Origin: Limisphaerales bacterium
GTDB lineage: Bacteria; Verrucomicrobiota; Verrucomicrobiia; Limisphaerales; SXTU01
Reading direction: 5' to 3'
Assembly (NCBI GenBank): GCA_040081795.1
Contig: JBEBFV010000003.1
Location: 1 to 45,970 of the forward strand
DNA length: 45,970 bases
Positions 8,127 through 44,836 of the stretch are shown in pieces; the stretch's first letter is position 1; each line of letters begins with the position of its first letter. The translations under genes and the position numbers were made by a program. Under the pieces are notes generated by a model that saw only the letters and a list, made by a program, of their open reading frames with translations, made no database searches and was not told where the DNA came from.

Positions 8127-9230
8127 TCAAATCCTGACCCGCTCGGCCCCGTCGCACTCATCCTCGTAGTCGTAAAACACCACGGGCGGCGTCGCGGCTG
8201 GCAGCGTCTTCACCGCTGCTGCGCAAGGTGCCAAATCCTCGGTCTGGAGGCGCTGGTAAAGGGTGTGAACGTCGGCGGAGGAATGGCCCACGAACTTCAT
8301 CGCCTGACTTTGGTTGACGCCCGCGCGGGCGAGGCGGCTGATCACTGTGACGCGGCAGCAGTGAAAGCAGTATTGCGGGCGGCCAATCCGGTCGAAAAAA
8401 CGGCGCCAGTGCTTGGAGGCATCCTCCGGAATTTCACAGGTGCGCTCGCGGCCTTCGGCGCGGAGGCGCTCAAAGAGCGGCCGCAGCCGCTCCTGCAAGG
8501 GCACGGTGAACACCTTCTGCCCCTTTTCATGGAACGTGACCGTCCACTGGTCCCAATTCACATCGCGGCGCAAGTCAATTGAGGTCGCGCGCAGCCGCGT
8601 GCCGTGAGCGATGGAAATCTGAAAGCTGACGAACATCCACTCCGGCTCCTGCTGCAGCTCGTCCAAGATCAGGGCAATGTCCGGGCCGCTGATCTCCGGC
8701 TTCTGCGGCGAGGGCTGTTTCGTCAGGCCGGTCTTGTGGCAGGGGTTCCGCTCGCAGAATTCCCGGCGGACGGCTTCGTCTAGCACAATGCCCAGCAGCT
8801 TCACATCGCCCAGGGAGGTATTGTGGCTGGCGGACCGGACGCGGTCATCATCGGGCTGCATCCGCCAAGCATGGTAGGCTAGGACATTGGCATAGCGAAG
8901 CTGACGCGGATGATGGAGGCCGTGGCGCTCAAGAAAGACGGACAAGACGCGCCATGATCCAAGATAGCGCTCCAAGGTCCTTGCCTGGTGCGGCGCACTA
9001 TGGCGGGAACGCAGGAACGGCAAGACCCACGCGGAAAACTTCTCGGTTCCACTGACATTTCGCCCCGTGCGCTCCTTGATGGATTCCTCCTCGGCGAGGG
9101 CGTGGGCGCGTCGCCGGTCCAACCGGTTGTCCTTCCGAAGCACGGTGCTCCGCTGGTGCCATTTGCCATCTGCGCCGCGCGTGCGGAGTTGCAGGAACGG
9201 GCTGTCAGTCTTGGCGACGAGGTGGGCCAT
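8127..9230 (-). CDS. Tyrosine recombinase/integrase (paralog B, convergent with A)
   Basis: HGTRLRA, HEKG, FHCCRVTVISRLARAG, VGHSS, HTLY. Collinear with 7024..8094. Confidence 0.9.
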   Translation of the reverse strand: MAHLVAKTDSPFLQLRTRGADGKWHQRSTVLRKDNRLDRRRAHALAEEESIKERTGRNVSGTEKFSAWVLPFLRSRHSAPHQARTLERYLGSWRVLSVFLERHGLHHPRQLRYANVLAYHAWRMQPDDDRVRSASHNTSLGDVKLLGIVLDEAVRREFCERNPCHKTGLTKQPSPQKPEISGPDIALILDELQQEPEWMFVSFQISIAHGTRLRATSIDLRRDVNWDQWTVTFHEKGQKVFTVPLQERLRPLFERLRAEGRERTCEIPEDASKHWRRFFDRIGRPQYCFHCCRVTVISRLARAGVNQSQAMKFVGHSSADVHTLYQRLQTEDLAPCAAAVKTLPAATPPVVFYDYEDECDGAERVRI

Positions 9231-10211: not shown

Positions 10212-10883
10212 ATGCCGTCCTCGCTTCCTAAGCTTTGTCCTGAATGCCGCAGCCGAATGGTAGTCAGCCGAACTTTCGAGGCTCCCGAAACCCGTGTGCG
10301 GACTCAGATTTGGAAGTGCCTAAATCGCGCTTCATCCGTGATTGCACGTCCGCACAAACGCGACCTCCATTTACGTGGGATGATTCAAGAGCGCTTTCGT
10401 CTTGATGGACGAAGTCGAGGCGCTAGCCAAGTGATTCTGGACGAAGATACGCTTATGCGCACGTTGGCGGGGCTTGCGATGGGATTGTCAATCCGAGAGC
10501 TTGAGCGGCTGGGCCTCACTCGTCTTTACTCGAACCATGCGCGCCTGATGAACCGGCGATGGTTTAAGGACGCCGCTTATCGAAGCGAAGCTGAGTGCCT
10601 GCTTAACCGTTATGCGGAAAGGAATGATTGGGAACTTCGCCTTACAATCCTACTTTGGCAGAGTGCGTGCGTGGATGAAGGATTCACCCCTTCCAAAGCC
10701 GCCGCCAGCAAGGTCTTGAGAATGGGACTCGATTCTGCGGAACCGAGCTTCAGTCAGAGAATCGCGGGCCAAAATGCTGAAGTTTTGCGCACCGACTCGC
10801 GCAACCGGCTTACGTCCGGAAATTTCATACGGGCCGTAGAGCAAGCGAAGGAACGCCGCCGTCGTCAAAACGGTCTTTGGTGA
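10212..10883 (+). CDS. Hypothetical protein with N-terminal Zn-ribbon-like CPEC...C and possible HTH
   Basis: LCPECRSRM...IWKC and LAGLAMGLSIRELERLGL. Lies between the two inverted leader copies. Confidence 0.5.
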   Translation: MPSSLPKLCPECRSRMVVSRTFEAPETRVRTQIWKCLNRASSVIARPHKRDLHLRGMIQERFRLDGRSRGASQVILDEDTLMRTLAGLAMGLSIRELERLGLTRLYSNHARLMNRRWFKDAAYRSEAECLLNRYAERNDWELRLTILLWQSACVDEGFTPSKAAASKVLRMGLDSAEPSFSQRIAGQNAEVLRTDSRNRLTSGNFIRAVEQAKERRRRQNGLW

Positions 10884-11093
10884 GCGATTATTCCAGAGGG
10901 AGTCAGCAGGACGAGTTTGACGGTGCGCCGGGCGTCTCTCGTCGCGCCTGCGAGGTTGGTTCAAGGAGCCGCAACGCTTGCAAAATTTACCCAGCCACTG
11001 CTGCCTTACTGTTAGCAATTGGCGTTTGATGGCTGGCTGGTCACAATAGCGAGCCGTGGTCCAACGCTCAGAGGGTAGCAAACGCGATCTTTA

Positions 11094-11276
11094 CACGGTT
11101 CGTGCATAGGAAGCGGAATTGTCATAGTAAAATTGTGGCAACAGCCCTTTCACCTCCGCACGGTTCGTGACCCGCAAACGAAGTTCCTTCCTTGTGTCCG
11201 CGCATTTTGCGCTGGCGCCTGCTCCAGGCCGTTCGGAGAAAGCCCGCAAGGGTGTCCGCAAACAAGGTTTGCGGAC
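11094..11276 (+). promoter_or_regulatory. Conserved ~185-bp leader element, copy B
   Basis: Boxes at 11094-11104 and 11159-11169, core 11230-11258, perfect 10-bp hairpin 11254-11276. ATG 24 nt downstream (11301). Confidence 0.75.
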
Positions 11277-11300
11277 TCAGCTAACAAGCAACACATCACC

Positions 11301-11402
11301 ATGACCACTACCGCAAATCCCACCACCGCCTCACGCGCCGTCGAGGAGCTGCTCAACAGTTCCTCTGGTTTGGGCGTGTGCGCGGGACGGCAGCCTCAAT
11401 AG
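11301..11402 (+). pseudogene. 33-codon ORF behind leader B (small peptide or truncated gene)
   Basis: ATG lies at exactly the same distance from the hairpin as the ATG behind leader A, but the ORF stops early. Confidence 0.35.
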
Positions 11403-11413
11403 GCTCGCCGGTT

Positions 11414-11689
11414 ATGAACTGCCCATGCCCTCCGGCCAAGAGCCGGCCCAAGCAGCCGACGCTCCTCGAATCCGCCGGGGAGGTCGTGCTGCTGCTCGTC
11501 ATCGTCGCCGTGATTGCCGTGGTGCCCTTGCTTGTCTGCGAGTGGCTCGCGCAAATCGCCCTGCCGGCGCCCGTGAACGGGACGCCAGAGATGCGGCAGG
11601 CTGTTGCCGCCCAGCGAGAGTCGCTTGCGAAGGTGCTGTTCGGCCTGCTCTGGGCGGTGCTTGGCGGGTGGCTGATTTTCTTCGGCTGA
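11414..11689 (+). CDS. Small two-TM membrane protein
   Basis: Two hydrophobic stretches (VVLLLVIVAVIAVVPLLV; VLFGLLWAVLGGWLIFFG). Confidence 0.55.
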   Translation: MNCPCPPAKSRPKQPTLLESAGEVVLLLVIVAVIAVVPLLVCEWLAQIALPAPVNGTPEMRQAVAAQRESLAKVLFGLLWAVLGGWLIFFG

Positions 11690-11730
11690 ACGGCTGGGCT
11701 CGTGCCTCACGCGCGCCCCGCCGGTCCACA

Positions 11731-12435
11731 TCAAGTTGTCTGCCGCTCAAGCCGTGCCTTGCGCAGCTTCCAGTCTGGAAGCAGGCGCGTCAGCAGTTCG
11801 TAAAATCGCGGGCCGTGGTCGTGGTGCCGGAGGTGGCAGAGTTCGTGGATGATGACGTAGTCAATGCAATCCACGGGCGCGCAGATGAGCGCCGGGTTGA
11901 GCAGAATCCGGCGGTCAGCGCCGCAACTTCCCCAGCGCCGGGGCATCCGCCGCAATCCAAATCCCTTCGGTGTGATGCCAAAGGGGTGAACTGCTTCGCT
12001 GCATCGCTGGAATCGTTCCGCGAGCTTTTGCTGGGCGCGCCCGCGAAGCCACTTTTCCAACGACGGCGTGGCCCCTGTCTTGTCAGGCTGCTTGTCCTTG
12101 ACGACGATTTCGACCACGCCACGCGACATCCTGATTCCTAACGGGTTGCCTGAGCGAATCCGCAGCCGGTATTGCCGCCCCAAGTAGCGAATGGACTGGC
12201 CGCTCACGCGCCGCTCACTTGGGGCCGGGAGCAAGGCTTCAAACATCCGCTGCTGCCGCAGTATCCACCGCCCTCGCCGGGCCACCCGGCCAATCACGCC
12301 TGCCTCTGCCGCGTGCGCCGGAGCGATGACCTCCACGGCCCCGGAGGGTTGAACGCGAATGGCGAGGTGCTTGACGGCGCGGCGCTCAAGCTGGAACTGG
12401 ATTGTGCGGGTGCCGTATTGCGCTTCGCAAATCAT
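11731..12435 (-). CDS. M48/SprT-like (YgjP/DUF45) metallohydrolase associated with HsdR
   Basis: RRWGSC, LLNPAL, IDYVIIHELCHL (HExxH), HGPRFY. 4-bp overlap with the hsdR stop. Confidence 0.92.
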   Translation of the reverse strand: MICEAQYGTRTIQFQLERRAVKHLAIRVQPSGAVEVIAPAHAAEAGVIGRVARRGRWILRQQRMFEALLPAPSERRVSGQSIRYLGRQYRLRIRSGNPLGIRMSRGVVEIVVKDKQPDKTGATPSLEKWLRGRAQQKLAERFQRCSEAVHPFGITPKGFGLRRMPRRWGSCGADRRILLNPALICAPVDCIDYVIIHELCHLRHHDHGPRFYELLTRLLPDWKLRKARLERQTT

Positions 12436-15400
12436 GCCGTCCCCTTGCTCCCCTTGTAATGCGCCTCCGCAATCGGCAGCACGTCCTTGCCGATTTCATC
12501 CAGCGCGGCCAGCGGCAGGGTGAAGCCGTGCCGCTTGGCGGTGGCAAGCAGACAGTCCTCCGCCGCGTTGAGCATCTGGTTGCGCACGTCCGGGTTGGCC
12601 GTCCAGTTGACGATGCTCGCGAGCTTCGCCACTTCGTCGTCAATCGCCAGGCCCAGCTCCACCCCCACAGCCTCAGCCTCCGCCGGGGACAGCGACTCCA
12701 TCGCGCCCAGCGCCCGCTTCGCCACCCCGTAGTAAGCCCGTGCGGCGGCGCGCTGGTGCAACTCTGGCGGCAGGTCGCTGGTGGCGCGGTCGCGGACCTT
12801 CTGCATGACCTCGCTCACGCTGGCGAGGTATTGCGCGTCCGTGAGCCGCTTGGCGCGGTAGTCCTCGATGAGCCGCTGAAGGATGCGGGAGAAGCGTTCG
12901 TAAAACGCGGGGTCTTCCTCCCACTTTTCACGGATGGTTTTCTCCGTGCGGCTGAAGATGGTGTCGGCGCGGGACGCGGTGCTTTCCAGCTTTTGCACTT
13001 CCGCGTCGAACCGCTCCTTGTCGAAGATGTTCACCAGCGGCGTGAGCTTCGCCACCTCCGTCGCGCCGACGTGCCGGTCAATCAAGGTCTGGATGCGCTT
13101 CTCGTATTCCGCGTAGTCCACTTCCTCGCTGTAACGCTGCTTCATGCGCGTGCGCAGGTTCAGGAAGTATTTCAGGTCGCGCCGATACCGGGCCACGGTC
13201 GCGGCGGGCGTCTGGGTGAAGAAGTCCGACGACGACAGCGCGACTTGGAAGATGCGCGCGAACCGGCTCAGGCGGGCGTAAAACTCGTCGCGCTGGTCCT
13301 GATGTTGCAGGCACGCGGCGAATTGTTCGTCGTCCTGCTGGTTCTTCACCGCGCGGAACAGCGCCCACAACTCCGCGCTGGCGTCCGGCAGCTTGCCCAC
13401 TTCATCGGCCACCGGCGTCAGTGTGGCGGCGAGGTCCGCCGCGTCGTATTCGGCCAGCGCCTCGTAGTGGGTCAGGGCCTCGTTCAAGTCGCCCAAGACA
13501 CCGTAGTAGTCGAGGATGTAGCCGAAGTCCTTGCCCTCGCTGCGGCGGTTCACGCGGGCGATGGCCTGCAAGAGCGTGTGACCCGTCAGTTTCTTGTCAA
13601 TGTAGAGGACCGTGTTGGTGGGGGCGTCGAAGCCGGTGAGCAGCTTGCTGACGACGATGATGATTTGCGGGTCGCCGTCCCCCTTGAAGCGGCTGGTGAG
13701 ACTGTCGTTGTAGCGTTCCTCGGTGCTGAAACGCGCCATCATCTCGCGCCAGAACAATTGCACGCGCGGCAGCTCGCTCTCGGCGCAATCCTCGTTGTCA
13801 TCGCGCGTGTCCGGCGCGGAGATGAGCACTTCAGTGGAGACGCGCAACGCCGGGTCGGTGCGGCCAATTTCATCAATGATTTCCTTGTAACGCAGCGCCA
13901 CGTCTTTCCGCGGCGCGACAAGCTGCCCCTTCGCGCCGGTGCCGGCGAAGGTGCTGGTGAAGTGTTCACAGAGGTCGTAGGCCACCATCATCAGCCGCTT
14001 GTCGGCGCGGTTCAGGTGGTCGGCGTTGGCGAACTTCTGTTTGAAATCCGCCTTCTGGTCCTCGGTCTTGCCGCGCATCAGCCGTTCAAACCAGAGGTCG
14101 AGCTGCTCCTTGTCCACTTCCTGTTCAACGTGCCGGCCTTCGTAGAGCAACGGCACCACCGCCTGGTCACGAACGGCGTGGTCGAGCGTGTAGGTGTGGA
14201 TGAAGTCACCGAAGACCTGGAGGTTGTTCCGCTTCTCGTCATGCACCACCGGCGTGCCGGTGAAGCCGATGAAGCAGGCGCGCGGCAGCGCCTTCCGCAT
14301 CATCGCATGGAACGAACCGAAGTTCGTCCGGTGGCCCTCATCCACCAGCACGAACAGGTTGGGGTCATCGTCAAGCTGGGCGACGCCGCGCACGGCGCGC
14401 TCGAATTTGTTGATGATGGTGGTGATGACCCCGGCCTTGCGGCTCTGAATCAGTTCGCGCAGCTCCTTGCCGTCCTTCGCGCGCACGGGTTCGTAACCGC
14501 AGTAGCGGAACGTGTCGCCAATCTGTTTGTCCAGTTCCACCCGGTCGGTGACGAGAATCAGCCGGGGATTGGGGATGGCCGGATGCAGCGTCAGCGCCTT
14601 CGCCAGCATCACCATCGTCAATGACTTGCCGCTGCCCTGCGTGTGCCAGACGAGGCCGCCCTGCCGGTTGGCGTCCGGCCCACGCTCTTGCACGCGGAGC
14701 AGCGCGGACTTCACCGCCGCATACTGCTGGTGCCGGGCAATCTTCTTCTCCCCGCCGTCGTAAACGATGAACTGGCGGCTCAGTTCCAGCAGCCGCTCCG
14801 GGCGGCACAGCGCATACAGGACGCGGTCCTGCTCCGTCACCGTCCGCTCCTGCAAGATGGGCAGCTCCAATCGCGCCCAATGCAGCTTCACCAGTTCATC
14901 CACGGCGAGCGGCTGGCTGAGAACCTTCAGCACCTCGCCGTCAGGAATCACCTCGCGCCACGACGCCCAGAACTCCGCCGGGGTGCGGGCCGTGGCGTAT
15001 TGCGCGGCCTCGCCATTGATGCCGAGCACGAGCTGGGCATACCAGTAAAGGCGCGGGATGCCGTCCTCGCGCTGGTTGCGGATGTGCTGCGAGATGGCTT
15101 GTTGAAGTTCCTTCTTGCCCCTCGGCTTGCACTCGATGACGGCGAAGGGGATGCCGTTCACGAACAGCACCACATCCACCCGGTAAGTCTCGCGCGTGCC
15201 GGTGCGCTCGACGGTGAATTCCTCGGTGACGTGGAAGGCGTTTTGGTCCCAGCGTTCCCAATCCACGTAGCGCAACGTGAAGCTGCGCGTGTCGCCCGCG
15301 ACCGTCTGGGGGAAGCTCTTGCCCAGCGACAGCAGGTCGTAAAGTTTCTCGCTCGTCTGAATCAGCCCCTCATCCGACAGGTCGCGGACGGCGGCGATGC

Positions 15401-15644
15401 CGGCTTCGATGGCCTCCGATGAAAACGGCTGCTCCTGACCTCGCCAGCGCACGCGGTTCAGCTTGGATAACTGCTCGTGCAAAATGGGCGCGAGAATCAC
15501 TTCCGACTTCCGCCCGCCGCGCAACTGCAACGCCTCGGCAGGCGGCAGGTAGCGGAAGCCCAGCTTCATCAGCAGTTCCACGGCGGGAATCTGCGAGACG
15601 AGCTTTTCGCGCGTGTCGGGCGTGGTGGATGATTCAGTGGGCAT
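12432..15644 (-). CDS. hsdR: Type I restriction endonuclease subunit R
   Basis: Nuclease motif VDVVLFVNGIPFAVIECK, Walker A HTQGSGKS, DEGH box, GFTGTP, LLTGFDAP, LLQAIARVNR. 1070 aa. Confidence 0.97.
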   Translation of the reverse strand: MPTESSTTPDTREKLVSQIPAVELLMKLGFRYLPPAEALQLRGGRKSEVILAPILHEQLSKLNRVRWRGQEQPFSSEAIEAGIAAVRDLSDEGLIQTSEKLYDLLSLGKSFPQTVAGDTRSFTLRYVDWERWDQNAFHVTEEFTVERTGTRETYRVDVVLFVNGIPFAVIECKPRGKKELQQAISQHIRNQREDGIPRLYWYAQLVLGINGEAAQYATARTPAEFWASWREVIPDGEVLKVLSQPLAVDELVKLHWARLELPILQERTVTEQDRVLYALCRPERLLELSRQFIVYDGGEKKIARHQQYAAVKSALLRVQERGPDANRQGGLVWHTQGSGKSLTMVMLAKALTLHPAIPNPRLILVTDRVELDKQIGDTFRYCGYEPVRAKDGKELRELIQSRKAGVITTIINKFERAVRGVAQLDDDPNLFVLVDEGHRTNFGSFHAMMRKALPRACFIGFTGTPVVHDEKRNNLQVFGDFIHTYTLDHAVRDQAVVPLLYEGRHVEQEVDKEQLDLWFERLMRGKTEDQKADFKQKFANADHLNRADKRLMMVAYDLCEHFTSTFAGTGAKGQLVAPRKDVALRYKEIIDEIGRTDPALRVSTEVLISAPDTRDDNEDCAESELPRVQLFWREMMARFSTEERYNDSLTSRFKGDGDPQIIIVVSKLLTGFDAPTNTVLYIDKKLTGHTLLQAIARVNRRSEGKDFGYILDYYGVLGDLNEALTHYEALAEYDAADLAATLTPVADEVGKLPDASAELWALFRAVKNQQDDEQFAACLQHQDQRDEFYARLSRFARIFQVALSSSDFFTQTPAATVARYRRDLKYFLNLRTRMKQRYSEEVDYAEYEKRIQTLIDRHVGATEVAKLTPLVNIFDKERFDAEVQKLESTASRADTIFSRTEKTIREKWEEDPAFYERFSRILQRLIEDYRAKRLTDAQYLASVSEVMQKVRDRATSDLPPELHQRAAARAYYGVAKRALGAMESLSPAEAEAVGVELGLAIDDEVAKLASIVNWTANPDVRNQMLNAAEDCLLATAKRHGFTLPLAALDEIGKDVLPIAEAHYKGSKGTA

Positions 15645-15660
15645 CGCGTGGGCTGGCAGG

Positions 15661-16119
15661 CTAATTCTCGCCGGGGGAGTAAGCCGCCTTGGGTTCGTCT
15701 GTCTTCTCAGTCGTGTGATTCGCGGATGGTCCCAGCCACTTGCCGGTCAGCAGAAACAACTCGTAGAAGACGAGCCATTCAGCCACCCACGGGATGACGG
15801 TTTCGTGCAAATGCCACTTGTTCTGCCAAGGCTGCTCACGCCAGTCGTAGAGGCAAAGCGTGTCGTTCCGATACATGTGCGCGCCGGACGTGAACTTGAG
15901 CGCTGGCTCGATGACGCGGATTTCAGGTGAACTCCACGGCTGGTATTTTATTTCCACGCGGTAAGGCGCGCTGTGCTCAGTCGGCTGAATCCGCCCGCGA
16001 CACGTCAACTCCTGCCCACGAATCCGCGCATGGAGGCCGGGAAAACTCCGCCGGACGAGCGCCTGCTCACAAACGACCTTGTGATAGCGGTCAGCTTTGT
16101 TGGTGGGGATGGTCGCCAT
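15661..16119 (-). CDS. Stand-alone prokaryotic E2 (ubiquitin-conjugating-like) protein of short type II CBASS
   Basis: GRIQPT...YRVEIKY...PEIRVIEP...HMYRNDTLCLY...W...TVIPWVAEWLVFYELF...GKWLG matches the CBASS E2-only family (catalytic Cys in LCLY). Overlaps the CD-NTase 3' end. Confidence 0.85.
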   Translation of the reverse strand: MATIPTNKADRYHKVVCEQALVRRSFPGLHARIRGQELTCRGRIQPTEHSAPYRVEIKYQPWSSPEIRVIEPALKFTSGAHMYRNDTLCLYDWREQPWQNKWHLHETVIPWVAEWLVFYELFLLTGKWLGPSANHTTEKTDEPKAAYSPGEN

Positions 16120-17200
16120 AGAACTTGTGCGGTAGGTTCAGCACGCCCGCGCCGATGGCGGCGCGGACAATCACGCCAGCGCTGTTGGTCGCCGCAACTC
16201 CCGCGTTCACCAGTGCGGCATTGGCAAAGAGCGTGCGCGTCTTCCCCTTGTCCTTGTCGTAAGCCTCGAAATACCCGTCGCTCTGGAACACCCAATCCCA
16301 CGCGGCGCGAGCCTGCCCAGGTTTGCAGTCCGAACGGTGGAGGACATTCAACTGCGCCAGCGCCTCTCCGACGCGCGTGCGCAACTCCACCATGTTCCCG
16401 TCGCTTGGCGACTTGGTAAGCTTGTCCTTCGGCCACTTTGTCTGCGCCCGGTTCTCCACTTCCAAGTTCGTCGCGAGCCGGTCCTTGAGCCGGGCGAGCA
16501 GCCAGTAAAAGCACTCGTCATCCCGCTGGTATTGGGTTTGCAGGCACTCTTCGGTGAGCATCGTAAGCTTGAGGCCGTTTGGCAGGTCCCAATCCTTGCC
16601 CCGGCTGCGGGCGAATCGCTTCATCATCCGAATCATCACGCGGAGCTGGGAGCCAGCACCGGCGCGCTGCTTGTTGAGCGCCTGAACACGGTCCAGAAAC
16701 CAGCGATTGATTTCAGTCGGGTCGGAGAGATTGAACCCCGCTGCCCCGGCCAACTCTTGCCGCTCCTTGTCTGTGTCCGCATCGAGCTTCCGATAGGCGG
16801 GCACGTCAACATGGTGGCCCGCCTCGTAGAAGATGCGGACGCAGTTGTTGTGAATCTCCGGCTGCTTGTTGAATCGGTCGTCCTTCAAGGCATCACGCAC
16901 CATCACTTGCGTGTCCATCGCGCTGTAGGCCGCACCGTCCTTCTTCTTCAAGTCGTCCGCGTGGAACCACACGCCGTCGTCAATGTCGTAGGCGTTATCC
17001 TTCTCCTGAACCGTCGTCTCAATCGCCATTGAGCCTTGCGGCATGAAGTGATTGTCGTTCAACCGGATGGTGTCGGGGCGGTTGGCTTTGAGCCGGTTCC
17101 GATTGGCGGCGCGGTGGTCGCGCAACTTGTCTTTGACTGCCTGCGGCAACGCAACGCAGTCGGCTTCGTAGGCTTGGATTTGTTCGTTGTAATCAAACAC
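16091..17200 (-). CDS. cGAS/DncV-like nucleotidyltransferase (CD-NTase) of CBASS
   Basis: PQGS...T...YDIDDG catalytic motif, CVRIFY...HVDVPAYR, SDP, QLRVMIRMMKRFA, and a C-terminal tail ...PHKFYG-DHPHQQS. GTG start with GGAGG RBS. Confidence 0.92.
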   Translation of the reverse strand: MFDYNEQIQAYEADCVALPQAVKDKLRDHRAANRNRLKANRPDTIRLNDNHFMPQGSMAIETTVQEKDNAYDIDDGVWFHADDLKKKDGAAYSAMDTQVMVRDALKDDRFNKQPEIHNNCVRIFYEAGHHVDVPAYRKLDADTDKERQELAGAAGFNLSDPTEINRWFLDRVQALNKQRAGAGSQLRVMIRMMKRFARSRGKDWDLPNGLKLTMLTEECLQTQYQRDDECFYWLLARLKDRLATNLEVENRAQTKWPKDKLTKSPSDGNMVELRTRVGEALAQLNVLHRSDCKPGQARAAWDWVFQSDGYFEAYDKDKGKTRTLFANAALVNAGVAATNSAGVIVRAAIGAGVLNLPHKFYGDHPHQQS

Positions 17201-17969
17201 TGTGACCTCCTTGGTCTGGCGGACGGTTCGCTAGCTGATTGGCGTAGGCCATCCAGTCCACCGCCGGAACCGTGGCGAGCGACTGGAGTTTCCACAACAG
17301 GCGGAAGGCGAAATAGGCCAGCGCGTTCTCTGGCGGGCCAAAGGTGTATGCGTTCGGCCCGGCGAACGTGTCGAAGCTCGCGCCGCTCGCGGCGAAGCCG
17401 CAGTCAATCTTCCGCTCGTTCAGCAGGCCGGCGTGAGCTTCCCGAAACGACTCGCCGAACCCGTCTTTCCAGTCAACCTCGATGGCGAGGATTCCAGCCA
17501 CGATGTCGAAATGCTTTTTGGCAGCGAACACGCCGCCCGCGTGATGGATTTCAACTGAAGTGCGCTTGAGCTTCCTCACTGAAGCAGCCTTGTCCGCCGC
17601 ATATTCCAAGTAGCCCTTGTCAATCGTCGGCTTGCACTCAAAGACGGCGTAAACGGCTTCGGCTGGCACGTAGCGGTGCTTGTGGTTGTCCAGCAAGGTC
17701 GGTGTGTATTGCCGGTCGAAGACCACCACGTCTATCGAGTCGCTGACGTTGCCTTCGCTGTCGAGGACAATGGCCTTCTCGATTGTGTAGCGGTTGGGCA
17801 GGTATTTGCGGAGGAAATCAATGCAGTGCTGTTCGTTGACTTCCCCTCGGTCGCCCGCGTGCGAGATGCGCTTGGAGGATTTCAGTTGGGCCTTCAAGCA
17901 ATCCTGCTCAGTGGCGAAGGCTTGCCGTAGGAATTCTGCGTTGTGCGGCGTGTTCGTGTCGTTGTTCAT
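17193..17969 (-). CDS. nucC: NucC-family cyclic-oligonucleotide-activated endonuclease (CBASS effector)
   Basis: H-GDRGEVNE, YLPNRY, DSEGNVSDSIDVVVFDRQYTP, VPAEAVYAVFECK, SVRKLKRTS--I-HAGG and C-terminal TVPAVDWMAY are collinear with E. coli NucC as I recall it. Confidence 0.93.
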   Translation of the reverse strand: MNNDTNTPHNAEFLRQAFATEQDCLKAQLKSSKRISHAGDRGEVNEQHCIDFLRKYLPNRYTIEKAIVLDSEGNVSDSIDVVVFDRQYTPTLLDNHKHRYVPAEAVYAVFECKPTIDKGYLEYAADKAASVRKLKRTSVEIHHAGGVFAAKKHFDIVAGILAIEVDWKDGFGESFREAHAGLLNERKIDCGFAASGASFDTFAGPNAYTFGPPENALAYFAFRLLWKLQSLATVPAVDWMAYANQLANRPPDQGGHSV

Positions 17970-19132
17970 GGCTGTTTGGTTTTAACGCGGACCTTGCCGG
18001 TGAGGAGCTTCTGCATGAGGCCGCGCTTTTGGAGTTTCAGGGCGGCCAGTTCGGTTTCGAGCAGGCGGATTTCGCGGTCGCAGGCGTCGAGCACGCTCAC
18101 GATGCGTTGCTGTTCCTCAATGGTGGGCGGCAACTGGATGTGATGCTTCAGGAAGTCCTTGGAATCGAAGATGAGCTTCTCGACGTGAACGCCGTCGCTG
18201 GCGAGGAAGGCGAGGTGCCACATGCGGCGCTGATGACAGAGCCAGTCGAAGAAGGGCATGTGCAACACGTCGGGCGCGCGGTTGACGAGGATGGAGTATT
18301 CCTTGGAGACGTGGCAGCCAGCGAACTCGTCCGTCACCATGCCCCAGGCGCCGTGGACAACCTGCCGCTTGGAAATCAGGAAATCACCGCTGCGGACTTC
18401 ATGCAGGTCGGTGGTCTTGTAGTCCGCGCCGAGCAAGTCTCCACGGCGGAACAGGCCGCCACAACGACGGCGGATGCTGATGAGGTGGAACAGGCGGTCA
18501 GGTGCCCAATCCACCGGGCGGAAGACGTGCTCCAAGACAGCGCCCAACTGGACGCGCCGCCATTTGCCGCGACCAAACTTGGGGAAGCGGCGGGTGCCGG
18601 TGAGGAGATGTTCGCGCAAAGCGCGCATGCGCTCCGTCTTGGTCGTCACCGTTGCTTGCAGCTTTTCAATGGCCTGGTCCCAAGTCGCAAGAATTTCGGC
18701 TACACGCTTTTGTTCGCGTGAAGCCAGGGCGACGAACGGGGTGTCGAGGATAACGTCGCGGGAGATACCCGGAATTAACCCCGATGCTACGGCTTCATAT
18801 CGGTGTCCATTGGCGAGAAGGACTTGGTGAACAAAATTGGCATCCCATGATTTCGGACGGACAGCCATCAACTGCCGACCAATGGCATAGCGTCGGTCAG
18901 CGCGAACGACTGCGCCGGTGCCTGAACCCTTTACGACCACCAGAATATCCCCAGCTTCGCAAAACGCTCGACCAGTTCCAGTGAATCGTTCCGCGTTTGG
19001 TTTCCCGTTCAGAAAATCCGTCGGGCCAGTCAAATACGGAATCCCGCGCTTCTCGAAAGTTAGTTCAGCGCTTTCGATGTGCTGACCCGAAATCAGTTGG
19101 ATGTCGTCACCAAGCAAGCTGTGGCGGCTCAT
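17966..19132 (-). CDS. hsdS: Type I RM specificity subunit S
   Basis: Two TRDs separated by conserved regions (EQKRVAEILATWDQAIE; LPPTIEEQQRIVSVLDACDREI...KRGLMQKLLTGKVRV). Confidence 0.93.
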   Translation of the reverse strand: MSRHSLLGDDIQLISGQHIESAELTFEKRGIPYLTGPTDFLNGKPNAERFTGTGRAFCEAGDILVVVKGSGTGAVVRADRRYAIGRQLMAVRPKSWDANFVHQVLLANGHRYEAVASGLIPGISRDVILDTPFVALASREQKRVAEILATWDQAIEKLQATVTTKTERMRALREHLLTGTRRFPKFGRGKWRRVQLGAVLEHVFRPVDWAPDRLFHLISIRRRCGGLFRRGDLLGADYKTTDLHEVRSGDFLISKRQVVHGAWGMVTDEFAGCHVSKEYSILVNRAPDVLHMPFFDWLCHQRRMWHLAFLASDGVHVEKLIFDSKDFLKHHIQLPPTIEEQQRIVSVLDACDREIRLLETELAALKLQKRGLMQKLLTGKVRVKTKQP

Positions 19133-20640
19133 AGTCCAAGCTCCTTGAGGTAGCGACCAATCTCCTTCCGCACGCCGACGAGTTCGTCTTCAAGCCGGGT
19201 GATTTCCCGCTGCACCTGCTTCAAGTCCACCGGCGCTTCCGCCTCGAACGTGTCCACGTAGCGCGGGATGTTGAGGTTGAAGTCGTTCTCCTTCACTTCC
19301 TCGAACGTGGCGCGCTTGGCGTATTTCGGCACATCCTCGAACCGGCGCACGGTCTGGACGATTTTCTCAATGTCCTGCGGGCGGAGCTTGTTCTGGTTGG
19401 TGCCTTCCTGATATTCGCGGCTGGCATCCACGAACAGGATGTCGGTGCCGCGCCTCGCCGCCGGCTTGCCCTTGTTGAACAGCAGAATCGCGGCGGGGAT
19501 GCCGGTGCCGTAAAAGAGGTTCACCGGCAGGCCGATGACGGCTTCCAGCAGGTTTTCCTCGATGAGCGCCTGACGAATCTTCCCCTCCGCCGCGCCCCGG
19601 AACAGGATGCCATGTGGCACGATGACGGCCACCCGGCCAGAGCCAGCCTTGGCGACTTCGACCATGTGGGTGATGAAGGCGAAGTCGCCCCGGCTCTTGG
19701 GCGGGATGGCGCGGTGAAAGCGGCCGTAAGGGTCGGCGGCAGCCTTGTCGGCCCCCCACTTGTCGAGGGAGAAGGGCGGGTTCGCCACCACGATGTCGAA
19801 CTTCATCAGCCGGCCATCCTCGACGAGCTTGGGGGAATTGATGGTGTCGCACCACTCGATGCGCGCGGCGTCGAGGCCGTGGAGGAACATGTTCATGCGC
19901 GCGAGCGCGTAGGTCTGGTTGTTGTTCTCCATTCCGAAGACGGCGACGTTCTGGCTGCCGACTTCGCGCGCGACCTTGATAAGCAGCGAGCCGGAGCCGC
20001 ATGACGGGTCGCAGATTTGGTGGCCCGGCTTGGGGGCAAGGAGCTTGGCGAGCAGCGTGGCGACTTCGGAGGGCGTGTAGAACTCGCCGCCCTTCTTGCC
20101 CGCGTCGGAGGCGAACTGGCCGATGAGGTATTCGTAGCAGTCGCCGATGATGTCGCTGGGATTGCTGCCGAGCGTCTTGGGCCGGAGGTCGAGCGGGGCG
20201 AAGTCTTCCAGCAGGTGTTTCAGGCGGCGATTGCGGTCGCGCGTCTCGCCCAAGTGGACCTCGGAGTTGAAGTCAATTTTGCGGAACACGCCGTCGAGCT
20301 TGGCCTTGTTCTCGTCCTCGATGGTGTCGAGCGCGCCATTGATGAGTTCGCCGATGCTGTCCTTGTCCCGGCTGGCATAGAGCGCGTCGAACGTGGCGGA
20401 CTCCGGGATGATGAAGCGCTCGCGGGCGAGGCGGCGCTGAACCATCGGCTCATCCTTGGGGAACTGCGCGCGGAGTTCCTCGATGCGCTGGCGGCGCACG
20501 TCGCTGAGGTATTTCAGGAACAGCATCGTGAGGACGTAGTCCTTGTAAACGGACGAGTCCATGACGCCCCGGAAGGTGTCGCACGCCTTCCAGGCAACGC
20601 GGTTGATTTCGTCTTTTCGGTCAATGGTGGTGTCAGGCAT
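19129..20640 (-). CDS. hsdM: Type I RM methyltransferase subunit M
   Basis: WKACDTFRG, GKKGGEFYTP, DPSCGSGSLL (motif I), VANPPFS (motif IV), PHGILFRG, FNLNIPRYVD. Confidence 0.97.
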   Translation of the reverse strand: MPDTTIDRKDEINRVAWKACDTFRGVMDSSVYKDYVLTMLFLKYLSDVRRQRIEELRAQFPKDEPMVQRRLARERFIIPESATFDALYASRDKDSIGELINGALDTIEDENKAKLDGVFRKIDFNSEVHLGETRDRNRRLKHLLEDFAPLDLRPKTLGSNPSDIIGDCYEYLIGQFASDAGKKGGEFYTPSEVATLLAKLLAPKPGHQICDPSCGSGSLLIKVAREVGSQNVAVFGMENNNQTYALARMNMFLHGLDAARIEWCDTINSPKLVEDGRLMKFDIVVANPPFSLDKWGADKAAADPYGRFHRAIPPKSRGDFAFITHMVEVAKAGSGRVAVIVPHGILFRGAAEGKIRQALIEENLLEAVIGLPVNLFYGTGIPAAILLFNKGKPAARRGTDILFVDASREYQEGTNQNKLRPQDIEKIVQTVRRFEDVPKYAKRATFEEVKENDFNLNIPRYVDTFEAEAPVDLKQVQREITRLEDELVGVRKEIGRYLKELGL

Positions 20641-21244
20641 GGATAAATTGGAGGTTGGCCCAGCCGCGCAGCAGCGCCCGGCGTGTGGTGGTGAGTTGGT
20701 TCATCAAATTGTGCTCGTGCTCAATCAGCCCGTTCAGCTCGGTCACGCGCTGTTGGACGGCGATGGGCGGCAGGCGCAGCGGCAGCGCGCGGAGCACTTC
20801 CAGCGCAATCATGGGGATGGTGGTGCCGGAGTTGTTCGCGTGAAGGAAGGTTTGGGCTTCCTCCTGATTCAGCAGCCACGCGAGGAAGGCGGGATGGACG
20901 CGGCTGGTGTCCGGGCGCATGACGTGGAAGCTGCCCGCGACGATGGTTCGGGCTGGGACTTCGGAGCCGACGGGAACGGCGTAGTTGCGCGGGCCGCGAC
21001 ACATCAAGATGACATCATCGGGGCGAAGCAAATGGTCGTCGAGATTGCGAACTTCATCGGGCGAGATGCACACCAGCCCACCTTCGGCAGGCGCGACGCG
21101 AAGCCGGTCCGAATCAACATCACGACCTTGGATGACCGCAACCGTGCCGTCTGCATGATGCCGAACCCCCACGCGAAATGGGTATCCCGCCCGAAGCGAG
21201 GCGACTTCGGTAACGGTCAGCCAGTTCAATCTTCCGTCTATCAC
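20633..21244 (-). CDS. Single-TRD (half) HsdS-like protein upstream of hsdM
   Basis: VASLRAGYPFR, LRPDDVIL--RG, PAFLAWLLNQ, LPLRLPPIAVQQRV. 8-bp overlap with hsdM. Start uncertain (GTG 21244). Confidence 0.8.
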   Translation of the reverse strand: MIDGRLNWLTVTEVASLRAGYPFRVGVRHHADGTVAVIQGRDVDSDRLRVAPAEGGLVCISPDEVRNLDDHLLRPDDVILMCRGPRNYAVPVGSEVPARTIVAGSFHVMRPDTSRVHPAFLAWLLNQEEAQTFLHANNSGTTIPMIALEVLRALPLRLPPIAVQQRVTELNGLIEHEHNLMNQLTTTRRALLRGWANLQFIHA

Positions 21245-21426
21245 AGTATCGAGTATCGGGCAGTTTTTATGTTTCGTCAAGGGCGAAAACGACAGAATCT
21301 TGATACTGTTGAAACAGGCCAAAGCGAACCAGTGCAAATGTGATTCAACATCGGAAACAATCTTCGTTCCGGCCTTCGTTTACAAATCTGTGTGCGGACG
21401 GTAGCGGCACGGTAGAATCCCCGGTC

Positions 21427-21660
21427 ATGGAAAAACAGACCATCAAGACGGTGAACTTGGAGAAGCATGGCCGATTCTGGGCCGTGCGCGCGGACGGGGA
21501 ACTTCTCGCGCTGGTGCTTTACAAGAAGGGGGCGCTGGCCGTGCGGGATTTGCTGGTGCGCTTGGCGGGTATCCCGGCCAACGAGCCACCGAAGGGCGGG
21601 AGGACAACGCGGCGGACACAGAAGCGAGCCGAACCGAGTCCATCGCCGCGCGCAACGTGA
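21427..21660 (+). CDS. Small hypothetical protein
   Basis: MEKQTIKTVNLEKHGRFWAVRADGELLALVLYKKGALAVRDLL. Compact beta-beta-beta-alpha pattern. Divergent from the RM operon. Confidence 0.6.
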   Translation: MEKQTIKTVNLEKHGRFWAVRADGELLALVLYKKGALAVRDLLVRLAGIPANEPPKGGRTTRRTQKRAEPSPSPRAT

Positions 21661-21845
21661 CAGGCTCAACTGCCACGAGCCACTGAGCGGGGCGGGGCGG
21701 TTCAAGTGCGCTACCGAGTTTCAAAGGATTGGAAGGCAGCCACTTGCTTGGCTCACCGGTTCAAAGCCGCTCGTTGAGGTTGTGGACGTGGATGGACGCG
21801 TAGCGAGAAGCCACGTCTAGCATCTGGGCGCCAAGGTTCCTGAGC

Positions 21846-24602
21846 CTACGGCTCAACTAGGCGGAAGTATTTCGCCCCCGCCCCGACGGGCTGAACGATG
21901 CTGATTACCCCGCCGTTGGTCTGGAAGCCCCCGGCTACGTTGCTCCAAGAAACAGGGAGTGCAAGAGTCGCTGCCGATTCCAGCCGGTAGCGCCCTGCCG
22001 TGGCAGGCCAAAGCACGGTCAGGTTGTTGCCACTGAAAGCAGTGGTGATGGTGGGCGGCGTTGGCAAGGCATCAGTCAGGTTGGGGACGCCGTTGCTGTC
22101 GGTGTCGTTGAGGTCCGTGAATTCAAACACCCAATTCAGGTGGTCAGTCCAAGCGGTGCGCGCATCCCCGTCCGAGAACGTCAACGCGCCCACGTAGCGA
22201 TTGCCAGTGCGGTTGAACGTGGCGGCTTGCACCGTGTAAACGGAACTGTCCGTCGCGTTCGTCAGCGTGAACGAGGGCAAGGTGAACTGGCTGGTTGTAA
22301 TCACCGTGAAGGTGGTCGTGCCGGTCAGGGAGAAAACCACCCCGGCGTTGGTGCGCTGGCAGGAGAAAGTCATCGTGTTGAGCGCCCCGCGTGTGTAGCT
22401 GATGGAACCGGTGTAGCACTGCAATTCCAAGACCCCGGTGATGTTCAATTGCGTTCCGCCAGTAGCCAAGTCCACGACGTTGTAGGTTCCAGTGAGTGAG
22501 TTGGCGTTGCGGGTCAGACTGCCTGTGATTGGAATCGTGGCGATGGACGGAAAGTCGCGTTGGTAAGAGCCGGTGATGCTGCTGGCTCCCGCCTTGTTCA
22601 ACTGCGCAACATCGGGCAGGCCGTTTCCGTCGGAGTCGGTTGTCGGGAGGGTTAGAACGACACTGCCGTAATAGGCGAAGCTGTTGTCGCCATTGTTCAC
22701 GGTCGCGGAATCCGCCTCGTAAACCCCGCCGCCACGCGGTCGCAATTCACCACTGTAAAGGAAAATGCCCGGTGACACGGCCTGGCGCCATGGGCTTCCA
22801 GCTAGTCCGTCGTAGGTTGTGAAATTGAGCGTTGTGTTCGGAGGGTTCACCATAGCCGCCGACCGTAACAATAGCGACTGGCATTGGCCGCTGAGGGTGG
22901 CGGTGCGGGTCTGGGCTTGGACAACGGTGGAGCCAAGGGCGTTCGTGACGGATAAGGTAGCCGCTTGGCTGGTCACGCTCCCCGCGATGTTGGTAATCAC
23001 CACGCTGTAGCTGCCCGCGTCGCCAAGCTGCACGTTGGTTATCGTCAGGCTGCTGATGGTCGCTCCTGCGAGAACCGCGCCGTCTTTGCGCCACTGATAG
23101 CTCAAGGGCACCGTGCCCGTGGCTGTCACGCTGAAGGTGGCGTTGGAGGTCAAGTTCACCGACAAGCTCTGAGGTTGGCCGGTGATGCTGGGCAAAATGC
23201 CAGAGACATTGAGCGTTCGGCTTACGCTGACCGCCGGCAGATACGTCGCATCGCCGGGTTGACTGGCTGTAATGGTAGTGCTGCCGACGCCTGTGAGCGT
23301 AACGGTGCTTCCGATCACGGTTGCCACGCCGGTGTTGGAACTTGTGTAGCTCACTGGCAAACTGCTGCCGGTCGTGGCGTTCAGCGTGAATGGTGCGTCG
23401 GTAGTCAGTTTGGGAGGCAACACGTCAAACGTGATCACCTGAAGCAATCGGCTAACGGTGAGGTTGGCCGCGCTGCTCGTTGCCGTGCCGTAGGGATTCG
23501 ACACGACCACGGTGTAGCCCCCAGCCTGATTCGTGGCGACGCTGCCAATGCTGTAGTTGGCATTGGTTGCATTCGGAATGTTAGAGCCGTTGAAGCGCCA
23601 CTGGTAGGACAACGGACCTGTCCCTGTGGCGCTGCTAGTGAGGTTGACCGCCGAGCCAGCTAGAACGGCTGTATCGTTTTTTACGGCTAAGGTGAAAAAT
23701 GTGCCGCCTGCTACGGCGGTGAAATTGCTGTAGCCAAAGGGCACGCTTGCTTCTCCTCTGATAGAATAAGAGGGCCAAGCAACGAGCGTTCCATCACTCT
23801 TGAGTGCCAAGCTGTGATAGAGGCCGGCTGCAATTTGGACCACATTGCTCAGGCCACTCGGGGGAGGGTCGAGGTTTGATTCGTTCTGCCCCCAGCTCAC
23901 TACAGTTCCGTCACTTTTGAGGGCAAGATTGTTGAAGCCACCTGCTGCGATTGCGACAACGTTGCTTAGTCCGCTGGGAGCTACTCCTTGGCCGTATGTG
24001 TTAACACCCCACGCGACGATTCTTCCATCGCTCCGCAAGGCAAGGCTCTGACCGTAGCCCGCACCGACTGCGGTTATCCCGGTCAAACCACTTGGCACAT
24101 TCGTGACGTTGGAAAAAGGATACCCCCAAGCGAATACTGTCCCGTCATTTCTCGAAGCGACGTTGTAGAAATCACCAGAAGCTATGCTGGTCACGTTCGT
24201 CAAGTGTGCAGGCACTGTGGCCTGCCCGTAGGTGTTGTCGCCCCATGCAACAATGGTTCCGTCGGTCTTCAGCGCCAAACTGTGATACCGGCCCGCCTTA
24301 ACACTCACCACGTTTGTCAAGCCAAAGGGTGGCGTGATTTCGCCGGAAGCATGATTGCCTGCCCATGCCGTGACCGTTCCATCGCTCATCAAAGCCAAGG
24401 CGTGAGACTCACCGGCAGCGATTGCCACCACACCGCTCAACCCCGTGGGCGGCACGGGGAGATATGTGCTGTCGCCCCAGCCAACCACCTGCAAATTTGC
24501 AGGCTGCCGCGTAATCACGGGCTGGGTATTCACCGGCATTGTCTGGGAGCGGACAACGGCAACCGAAGCCAGCAAAAGGAAAATGGTAATCAGGCACTTC
24601 AT
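21846..24602 (-). CDS. Secreted/surface protein: RCC1-like repeats, Ig-like domains and a C-terminal verrucomicrobial-type domain
   Basis: Signal peptide, ~7 repeats of VAIAAG--HSLALKSDGTVVAWG, two I-set-like domains (PLSYQWR-NG...AG-YTVVVSN), DSDGNGLPD/DTDSNGVPN motifs, C-terminal YRLESA...W...KYFRL. Confidence 0.88.
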   Translation of the reverse strand: MKCLITIFLLLASVAVVRSQTMPVNTQPVITRQPANLQVVGWGDSTYLPVPPTGLSGVVAIAAGESHALALMSDGTVTAWAGNHASGEITPPFGLTNVVSVKAGRYHSLALKTDGTIVAWGDNTYGQATVPAHLTNVTSIASGDFYNVASRNDGTVFAWGYPFSNVTNVPSGLTGITAVGAGYGQSLALRSDGRIVAWGVNTYGQGVAPSGLSNVVAIAAGGFNNLALKSDGTVVSWGQNESNLDPPPSGLSNVVQIAAGLYHSLALKSDGTLVAWPSYSIRGEASVPFGYSNFTAVAGGTFFTLAVKNDTAVLAGSAVNLTSSATGTGPLSYQWRFNGSNIPNATNANYSIGSVATNQAGGYTVVVSNPYGTATSSAANLTVSRLLQVITFDVLPPKLTTDAPFTLNATTGSSLPVSYTSSNTGVATVIGSTVTLTGVGSTTITASQPGDATYLPAVSVSRTLNVSGILPSITGQPQSLSVNLTSNATFSVTATGTVPLSYQWRKDGAVLAGATISSLTITNVQLGDAGSYSVVITNIAGSVTSQAATLSVTNALGSTVVQAQTRTATLSGQCQSLLLRSAAMVNPPNTTLNFTTYDGLAGSPWRQAVSPGIFLYSGELRPRGGGVYEADSATVNNGDNSFAYYGSVVLTLPTTDSDGNGLPDVAQLNKAGASSITGSYQRDFPSIATIPITGSLTRNANSLTGTYNVVDLATGGTQLNITGVLELQCYTGSISYTRGALNTMTFSCQRTNAGVVFSLTGTTTFTVITTSQFTLPSFTLTNATDSSVYTVQAATFNRTGNRYVGALTFSDGDARTAWTDHLNWVFEFTDLNDTDSNGVPNLTDALPTPPTITTAFSGNNLTVLWPATAGRYRLESAATLALPVSWSNVAGGFQTNGGVISIVQPVGAGAKYFRLVEP

Positions 24603-24940
24603 ACCGGAATTGCGACCCGGCCACGGTCAAAAGAAAGGGCGCGAACTCAAAGCACCCCCGCTAAAGGCACCGCGAAGCGCCCGTCCAGAGAATACGCCAA
24701 GCCGCGCCCAGGGGGCGCGTGCTCGGTAGGTCTCTGGACATGAAATTCGCGGTTTCTTAGCGAGACCGTAGCCGAAGCTGCGCTAAATGTTTTGTGGTGT
24801 TTGGTTACATGGTTCTTTTGCTGACAAGGAATCGTTAACAAATTTCGCGCCTCCCTGCCATGACATTCTCGCTGACCGTCGGAACGCGGCGGCGAAAGGC
24901 GAATGGCCGCTTTACCGTAGCGGCCCCTGTAGGTAGGGGC

Positions 24941-25483: not shown

Positions 25484-25559
25484 CGCCCGGCGGGCGCACT
25501 TCGGGTGAATGTAAACAAAGAGGGGTGTGCTTCTACGGTGCCGGTTTGTAGGCTGGCCC

Positions 25560-31642: not shown

Positions 31643-31751
31643 GATGGTTATGAAAGTAGAGATACAATGCTGTGCCGACAATTTGTAAATGGCTCACGGT
31701 CACGGGGACTTCACATGGAATATCGCGGGGCGTTTGTAGGAGCCGGCGGCT

Positions 31752-33201: not shown

Positions 33202-33291
33202 AAACTAATTATCCTGCAACTACTTGCAGTGAAAACGATACTGCGAAAAACTTCCAGTTGTCACCCGAAAATGTCACCGTATGCTTCAGGG

Positions 33292-44833: not shown

Positions 44834-44836
44834 GGA

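Follow-up and report, generated by a model that had tools for sequence, protein, structure and literature searches.

When a complete signalling defence lies inside the operon of a restriction enzyme, do the two act as one system, or do they share only a location? The question is raised by contig JBEBFV010000003.1 of the Limisphaerales bacterium assembly GCA_040081795.1, which was analysed over its entire length of 45,970 nucleotides (nt) and is called the window below. On its minus strand, an antiphage signalling system that is based on cyclic oligonucleotides (CBASS) and has three genes, encoding the endonuclease NucC, a cGAS/DncV-like nucleotidyltransferase (CD-NTase; gene cdn) and an E2 protein, lies between hsdS and hsdR of a type I restriction–modification (R-M) operon. 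The two are probably layered but independent defences, co-oriented and likely to be co-transcribed, that have been linked through cassette exchange.

Composition of the operon

Eight open reading frames (ORFs) on the minus strand, from 21337 (or 21244) down to 11731, were confirmed in the ORF listing. In 5' to 3' order they are:

20633-21337, minus strand: half-hsdS, with one target-recognition domain (PADLOC Specificity_I 2.4e-19)
19129-20640, minus strand: hsdM, type I N6-adenine methyltransferase (Pfam N6_Mtase 3.8e-104, HsdM_N 5.9e-27; PADLOC MTase_I 2.7e-140)
17966-19132, minus strand: hsdS, full-length specificity subunit (PADLOC Specificity_I 1.2e-45, residues 54-386; Pfam Methylase_S)
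17193-17969, minus strand: nucC, CBASS effector endonuclease (PADLOC NucC 4.4e-92; Pfam DUF6602)
16091-17200, minus strand: CD-NTase, cyclic-oligonucleotide synthase (Pfam DncV-like NTase 1.3e-18; PADLOC cyclase 6.9e-93; PDB 7ljo 2.7e-15)
15661-16119, minus strand: E2-only Cap2, ubiquitin-conjugating-enzyme-like cyclase regulator (PADLOC E2 1.6e-39)
12432-15644, minus strand: hsdR, type I restriction translocase and nuclease (Pfam SWI2_SNF2 2e-76, HSDR_N 2.3e-37, T1R_D3-like 5.4e-22; PADLOC REase_I 3.6e-196)
11731-12435, minus strand: YgjP-like (M48/WLM-type) metallopeptidase (Pfam YgjP-like 6.8e-54)

Successive genes overlap by 8, 4, 4, 8 and 29 nt, are then separated by a gap of 16 nt and overlap again by 4 nt. 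The gene order and junction sizes given in an earlier reading of this DNA (the original prediction) match the ORF coordinates exactly, and a PADLOC run of the kind proposed with it called NucC, cyclase, E2, REase_I, MTase_I and Specificity_I. The longest ORF of half-hsdS starts with TTG at 21337, with an alternative in-frame GTG at 21244; its Pfam match to Methylase_S (6.9e-4) lies under the curated cutoff, and the gene is kept upstream of hsdM in most relatives. The YgjP-like peptidase gene is the conserved final gene, found 3' of hsdR in every relative with a long enough contig. The genes expected of a type I R-M system were all found (HsdM with its N-terminal domain, HsdS, and HsdR with nuclease and SF2 motor), and the system is intact by sequence.

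As predicted from its products, the cassette is a complete type II-short CBASS (E2-CBASS) of 2.3 kb with NucC as effector, and all three proteins look intact. NucC belongs to the same effector family as the NucC of the E. coli MS115-1 type III CBASS (PDB 6p7o, 1.4e-47) and the CRISPR-associated NucC of Serratia (PDB 7zgv, 'Serratia NucC', 1.7e-80). The partners of these two are HORMA/TRIP13-regulated cyclases or type III CRISPR, whereas the window NucC sits with an E2-only regulator inside an R-M operon. In the CD-NTase, residues G56, S57, D72, D74 and D132, which we take to be catalytic, are invariant across homologues, and a conserved C-terminal tail of ca. 50 residues ends in HKFYG[D/E]xxxx (alignment A1); the HKFYG[D/E] tail is not present in the second, E2-less cyclase of relatives, of which the copy of locus L005 was aligned. 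The E2 protein matches PDB 8hsb_B ('E2', 3.3e-7), a solved E2-CBASS entry, with the Cys of its 'LCL' motif aligned, and this residue (Cys89) is invariant in 44 of 44 homologues. A Pfam search gave no match to the ThiF (E1) or JAB families among the eight operon proteins.

Occurrence inside and outside hsd operons

The cyclase was used to collect relatives. A scan of one genome per species gave seven loci, three of which (L002, L003 and L005) have the order half-hsdS, hsdM, hsdS, nucC, cdn, E2, ..., hsdR(-M48). A scan of metagenomes with a cyclase alignment gave 72 further loci, and the window proteins were mapped on all of them by tblastn. A cyclase at least 65% identical to that of the window was encoded by 54 loci, the window included: 14 were hsd-embedded, 13 were free-standing and 27 had flanks that were too short. 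After collapsing at 95% cyclase identity, 37 clusters were obtained (11 embedded, 6 free-standing and 20 unclassifiable). A cassette was counted as free if it was preceded by a CapW- or CapH-like gene, or if its flank was clear of hsd matches over 3 kb or more upstream or 4 kb or more downstream, and as embedded on one co-oriented hsd match, which biases the count towards embedding; tblastn with hsd proteins of the window family could, in turn, overlook other type I families. As the criteria favour the embedded class, the true embedded share is probably lower. The association of hsd genes with the cassette is nevertheless real and frequent, and of the 14 loci in which the junction between hsdS and nucC is visible, 10 have it at −4 to +12 nt.

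The survey of close CD-NTase homologues suggested with the original prediction thus found the order hsdS-[nucC-cdn-E2]-hsdR to recur, in 11 of the 37 clusters (20 of them unclassifiable). Of the refuting case that the prediction had set against its own proposal, hotspot-type insertion, the genomic half is borne out in that the cassette also lives outside R-M operons (6 of 17 classifiable clusters); 11 of the 17 are embedded.

Among 400 other genomes sampled from the phylum, a cyclase match (E<=1e-20) was obtained in five. One of these (G287) is hsd-embedded, two (G141 and G336) belong to other CBASS types, and two (G342 and G248) carry nucC-cdn-E2 with no hsd gene within ca. 9 kb. In a plasmid collection, the best cyclase relatives were at most 36% identical; the two inspected (Agrobacterium vitis and Sphingobium) are patatin-type type II CBASS outside hsd and are uninformative for the clade of the window.

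Several embedded relatives hold extra cargo beside the cassette, namely a Ppl-like ATPase of 899 amino acids (aa) in L002 and L035, a Schlafen protein in L003, a HEC-07/NsnC-like protein in L005, which also has a second cyclase that lacks the tail, and a DUF1016/YhcG nuclease in L027. In L027, a short N-terminal hsdR fragment (9024-9200, 47% identity) follows E2 and is separated from the full hsdR by the DUF1016/YhcG gene; it may be the scar of a recombinational cargo insertion in the 5' end of hsdR.

Two further observations concern the cassette itself. Across the relatives' loci, its genes form a mosaic: NucC falls into two lineages, ca. 80% and ca. 54% identical to that of the window, which are combined with cyclases of 67-79% identity (ca. 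75-79% on a narrower estimate) and with very divergent E2 proteins (46-71%). Such combinations of NucC, E2 and cyclase indicate recombination within the cassette. A second cyclase, 53-55% identical, directly follows E2 in L005 (11617-12621), L029, L030, L033, L039 and L058, giving a two-cyclase CBASS, and abuts hsdR (+3 nt) in L029 and L039.

Exchange of the cassette at gene boundaries

One exchange was found between the window and a contig of 19,151 nt from another metagenome (X2). This contig matches the window over the M48 and hsdR genes (11708-15631; 172 differences in 3924 nt) and again over hsdM, half-hsdS and beyond (19127-21765; 106 differences), a backbone of ca. 96% nucleotide identity; two short conserved pieces of hsdS match as well. 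The segment that differs was delimited as follows:

15631-17982, no strand assigned: exchangeable cargo segment nucC-cdn-E2 (2350 nt here; 2909 other letters in contig X2)

The swapped stretch reaches 13 nt into hsdR on one side and, on the other, 16 nt into hsdS at its 3' end; the whole CBASS is spanned. A second pair, G287 with CBASS and G350 with an ORF of 200 aa in its place, shares half-hsdS plus hsdM and hsdR plus M48 at 86% nucleotide identity, with homology ending near the 3' end of hsdS and restarting at the start of hsdR.

The cassette was also followed out of the operon. The embedded cassette of L002 and the free-standing one of L019, which carries a CapW-like gene and an HNH/transmembrane (TM) gene, encode proteins that are 89% (NucC), 92% (CD-NTase) and 85% (E2) identical, and the nucleotide homology of 84% is confined to 2332 nt, from ca. 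25 nt before the nucC start through the E2 stop. The window itself is collinear with L002 and L035 at 75-80% nucleotide identity from half-hsdS (21207) to M48 (11756), broken only at one target-recognition domain of hsdS and at the Ppl-like insert; the composite operon as a whole therefore also moves, or is inherited, as a unit. The N-terminal target-recognition domain of hsdS is replaced in L002/L035 and in contig X2.

Trees were computed by the 'quick' method. The hsdR tree has 30 rows, of which 11 bear CBASS and 19 do not. Four changes of the CBASS label are required on it, at least three of them forced by starred (well-supported) branches, and G287 nests beside a non-CBASS operon; left out were L003 (110 aa) and L052 (147 aa), for their shortness, together with L008, L012, L086 and L090, each of which duplicates the window or G287. 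CBASS-bearing hsdR genes thus occur in at least three to four lineages, with HsdR 49-81% identical to that of the window in the three lineages scored. In the cdn tree, the embedded and free states are not separated and need five changes, a soft count in view of the poor resolution of this tree, where stars mark just 8 of the 41 inner branches. In 28 operons, the 60 nt that precede the hsdR start were inspected by eye and gave no shared motif, which is why homologous or illegitimate exchange, and not a site-specific one, is proposed.

The hsdS–hsdR slot as a cargo bay

Of 401 genomes sampled from the phylum, 32 had HsdR relatives (E<=1e-100; G000 included), and cargo was surveyed in the 20 best hsdR regions of this sample, of which 19 were usable and one was too short. 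Their common layout is half-hsdS (usually), hsdM, [gap], hsdS, [gap], hsdR, M48. In 17 of the 19 operons, at least one co-directional ORF of at least 80 aa lies between hsdS and hsdR, often packed stop to start; the slot is empty in L118 and L133.

The 36 cargo ORFs of 16 operons (G287 excluded) are heterogeneous. Pfam assigned Fic (3), Schlafen/AlbA_2 (3), SMODS (2), SLATT_6 (2), KAP (2), DUF4209 (2) and DUF7380 (2), with DUF6119, AAA_21, AAA_15, HEPN, RhuM and an IS200 transposase found once each; PADLOC assigned SoFic (4), PDC-S04 (3), PDC-S24 (3), PDC-S39 (2), cyclase (2) and 2TM effector (2). Other types of CBASS are part of the range: the slot of L052 holds nucC-cdn-Cap2(E2-E1)-Cap3(JAB), that of G287 holds nucC and a cyclase fused to an AGS_C sensor domain, and that of L121 holds a SMODS-AGS_C cyclase, with SMODS cyclases and SLATT 2TM effectors in the same cargo set. 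The hsdS–hsdR slot is a general bay that habitually carries co-oriented defence cargo.

A second slot, between hsdM and hsdS, is occupied in 13 operons of the survey, by 19 co-directional ORFs in all (L116-L134; alignment A3); in the window it is empty.

Expression of the operon

In the window, one candidate promoter was found:

21252-21280, minus strand: candidate sigma-70-like promoter (TTGACG, 17 nt, GATACT), just upstream of half-hsdS

In 10500-25500 no second sigma-70-like site was found, where 2.4 would be expected by chance; the result is not significant, and the test is a weak one for this phylum. From the end of the -10-like hexamer it is 8 nt to the GTG at 21244, and the first gene would be nearly leaderless if both promoter and start were real.

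Free-standing cassettes begin differently. In one head module, a divergent CapW-like gene and a small HNH/TM gene stand ahead of nucC (both genes in L015, L016, L018, L019, L022, L023, L071 and L081; the CapW-like gene only in L021); the CapW-like gene is WYL-WCX by Pfam in L015, and the L018 type is without a Pfam match and related by tblastn only. In the other head module (L004), an HTH gene is accompanied by a weak CapP-like gene. Between hsdS and nucC of the embedded cassettes, CapW-like or CapH/CapP-like genes were not found; in the window, no such regulator was recognisable (one weak match, E 0.009, was disregarded), and beside the 20 surveyed hsd operons no CapW-like gene was found. In L002 (3189-5708) and L035 (2679-5737), a CapW-like gene lies upstream of half-hsdS, together with a small gene of the YdjM-like or HNH kind; the head module of free-standing cassettes is thus placed ahead of the entire operon. 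This head region, which also holds an ORF of 268/302 aa without a family match, differs between the two loci, which are otherwise ca. 95% identical; the CapW-like copy of L002 is without a Pfam family.

Since the genes touch or overlap and no CapW-like or CapH/CapP-like gene is present, expression from the hsd promoter is the most likely mode, and the eight genes are probably transcribed as one unit. The original prediction of a two-layer defence, co-oriented, tightly packed and probably on one transcript, is in this respect supported: the arrangement recurs, and the embedded copies are without the regulator genes of their free sisters. Its statement that a CBASS regulator gene is missing applies to transcriptional regulators of the CapW or CapH/CapP type; in E2-CBASS, as described in PMC12948482, E2 itself regulates the cyclase post-translationally, through the extended C-terminus of the latter, and the statement is therefore true for the transcriptional kind only.

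Predicted mode of action

The locus is read as a member of an operon family with the layout half-hsdS, hsdM, [cargo], hsdS, [cargo], hsdR, YgjP-peptidase, in which the cargo is here an E2-CBASS. By analogy with the families concerned, HsdM2S would methylate and HsdR2M2S would restrict DNA. The CD-NTase would make a cyclic oligonucleotide, probably cyclic tri-AMP, to judge from the type of effector; cyclic tri-AMP is the ligand of NucC. E2 would bind and covalently handle the extended C-terminal tail of the cyclase and thereby regulate it, and the cyclic signal would switch on NucC, with degradation of DNA and abortion of the infection as the expected outcome. Restriction of unmodified DNA would form the first layer, and abortive infection by CBASS would act against phages that get through. 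Arrival and departure of the cassette would take place through exchange at two conserved boundaries, the 3' end of hsdS and the 5' end of hsdR, and the cargo would hitch-hike with a mobile R-M operon, gaining co-expression and co-transfer. Cassette exchange and hitch-hiking would thus account for the linkage of hsd and CBASS, and a dedicated molecular connection is not required.

Several points weigh against independence of the two layers. At least four CBASS architectures share the hsdS–hsdR slot, and 11 of the 17 classifiable clusters are hsd-embedded, an association well beyond a chance hit on a hotspot, even if the count is biased towards embedding; the sharing of the slot by several CBASS types and the frequency of embedding may stem from selection for a functional link. 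The lack of a dedicated regulator would likewise be seen in a system that is functionally integrated. As regards the single transcript, promoters may lie inside coding sequence, and as regards the signal, the cyclase product is deduced from the effector type.

Alternative explanations

The cassette might be embedded physically and yet be transcribed independently, from a promoter of its own in the 3' end of hsdS or in nucC, with hsdR likewise under its own promoter; the slot would then simply be the place where an hsdMS unit meets an hsdR unit and insertion is tolerated. In E. coli K-12, hsdR and hsdMS are indeed under separate promoters. Cargo varies freely at the hsdS–hsdR boundary, and the homology of embedded and free cassettes starts ca. 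25 nt ahead of nucC, so that the cassette may bring a short upstream element with it. We nevertheless consider this rather unlikely: here, as in most relatives, neighbouring genes overlap or lie no more than 16 nt apart, a scan for sigma-70-like sites (a weak test for this phylum) gave none within the operon, and in the free-standing sisters nucC comes after a regulator and a small HNH/TM or YdjM gene, which suggests that nucC is not normally promoter-proximal.

A guard of the PrrC type is also unlikely. Here the Hsd complex would silence the cyclase or E2, or anti-restriction proteins or inactivation of Hsd would trigger NucC. Such a guard would fit the position, which equals that of PrrC in EcoprrI, the recurrence of the arrangement across clusters and in at least three to four hsdR lineages, the presence of several CBASS architectures in the slot and the embedded copies without CapW-like or CapH/CapP-like genes. 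It is at odds with the exchanges described above: near-identical hsd backbones (X2; G287/G350) carry other cargo, which is an indirect argument, the three proteins of free-standing sisters all reach 85-92% identity (and sisters at a greater distance stand free as well), the hsd partners are very divergent, and the cdn tree does not separate embedded from free. Near-exclusive embedding of the PrrC type does not hold, with six of 17 classifiable clusters, and also L019, free-standing. Many unrelated defence genes use the same slot, so position alone is no argument for wiring. The hybrid system originally envisaged, with the cyclase guarding Hsd, is for these reasons not upheld: backbones of ca. 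96% and 86% identity hold other cargo, a cassette of 85-92% identity stands outside hsd, CBASS-bearing hsdR is scattered over several lineages, and unrelated cargo occupies the slot in 16 of the 18 operons other than G287. Functional coupling in the wider sense, be it a guard that fires when Hsd is disabled or a sensor fed by Hsd activity, appears improbable; were it real, selection would explain the bias towards the hsd slot, the convergence of at least four CBASS architectures on it and the regulator-less embedded copies.

An assembly chimera or mis-binned contig, with CBASS and hsd not adjacent in any one genome, would be conceivable for a fragmented metagenome-assembled genome (647 contigs, the window being one of them in full) and is practically negligible here, as the same gene order was found by tblastn mapping of the window proteins in 16 other loci and G287 from independent assemblies, the hsdR–E2 junction is bridged by short contigs of two other metagenome runs (X4 and X6, ca. 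96% identity), and the GC content is even across the region (0.585-0.657). The X4 and X6 contigs also show that the CBASS-bearing form circulates elsewhere. Close relatives of the window carry the label Verrucomicrobiota.

Relation to known systems

Embedding of defence systems in type I R-M operons is already in print. Payne et al. (2024; 10.1101/2024.01.29.577857) describe it with PrrC as an example, report the same orientation in 96.7% of cases, and put forward genomic-sink, backup and co-regulation hypotheses. CBASS as a named cargo of the hsdS–hsdR slot was not found in a search of full-text literature, in which figures and supplements may list it; the word CBASS does not occur in the main text of 10.1101/2024.01.29.577857, the figures and supplements of which may likewise do so. 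The class of guilt by embedding (type I R-M, bacteriophage exclusion (BREX), the defence island system associated with restriction–modification (DISARM) and Hma) shares with the present locus the uniform orientation, the varying cargo and the occurrence of the same cargo in non-embedded form, and several cargo ORFs found here match the PDC-S and HEC models of that study.

A close parallel is EcoprrI (hsdM-hsdS-prrC-hsdR), in which, as the original prediction had said and 10.1101/2024.01.29.577857 states, PrrC occupies the hsdS–hsdR slot. In both cases, an abortive-infection module has its place between hsdS and hsdR, in the same orientation as these, and may be taken for a second defence line after restriction (10.1101/2024.01.29.577857). 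According to the same source, PrrC differs in being almost exclusively embedded and held inactive by the R-M enzyme, whereas the cargo of the window, a signalling system of three genes, is also met in free-standing form, at 85-92% identity.

Independent defence systems in this kind of slot have been described as DarTG2 between hsdS and hsdR, at a site termed a potential recombination hotspot (PMC12255303), and as TgvAB embedded in type I R-M (PMC11411939). These islands resemble the window in that a single promoter or regulator has been put forward for the island as a whole (PMC12255303, PMC11411939) and differ in their cargo, a toxin–antitoxin pair and a type IV restriction system. As described there, they have a dedicated small repressor as first gene; none is recognisable in the window, and in L002/L035 a CapW-like gene stands ahead of the operon.

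The Serratia marcescens E2-CBASS (SmCdnG-SmE2) has, like the window, an E2-only Cap2 without E1 or JAB and a cyclase with an extended C-terminus, which in SmCdnG binds E2 (PMC12948482). The E2 fold family is common to both (8hsb_B, 3.3e-7, Cys aligned), but similarity is low (E2 3.3e-7; best PDB match of the cyclase 7ljo, 2.7e-15), and the effector here is NucC. With CBASS regulated by CapW (WYL) or CapH/CapP, the likeness is confined to the free sisters, which have WYL-WCX or HTH plus CapP-like genes; the window cassette has neither.

Genomic surroundings

The operon lies in a defence-rich mosaic of mobile elements, with the following neighbours:

8127-9230, 25527-26528 and 33229-34383: tyrosine-integrase genes
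28454-31681, minus strand: NB-ARC plus TPR (STAND-type) protein, 1075 aa
33126-33201: tRNA-Phe, adjoining the integrase gene 33229-34383
36854-39417: serine recombinase and ParB/RepB gene
40311-45970, minus strand: partial BREX system, running off the contig end
40311-42359, minus strand: BrxL Lon-like protease (4.2e-125)
42356-44719, minus strand: weak PglZ match
44837-45928, minus strand: DUF1016/YhcG PDDEXK nuclease, directly upstream of the BREX genes

The NB-ARC/TPR protein is possibly an Avs-like defence NTPase. The DUF1016/YhcG nuclease, of the same family as the L027 cargo that follows E2, may be encoded by a gene embedded in BREX. ARAGORN called a tRNA-Leu (anticodon tag) at 23646-23720, inside an ORF of 918 aa with RCC1/Ig repeats (21846-24602); the call is probably a false positive.

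Significance

The trigger of CBASS is a largely open question in the field. The same E2-CBASS is met here in three states, free behind a CapW-like regulator, embedded without a regulator between hsdS and hsdR, and swapped out of a backbone of ca. 96% identity; this series is a ready natural design for asking whether embedding alters regulation or triggering. If a guard were real after all, the PrrC paradigm would extend to cyclic-nucleotide immunity; if not, the locus adds one more well-resolved case of layered, co-transferred defences. The comparisons document cassette exchange, precise to gene boundaries, in a type I R-M family that acts like a carrier platform for defence genes.

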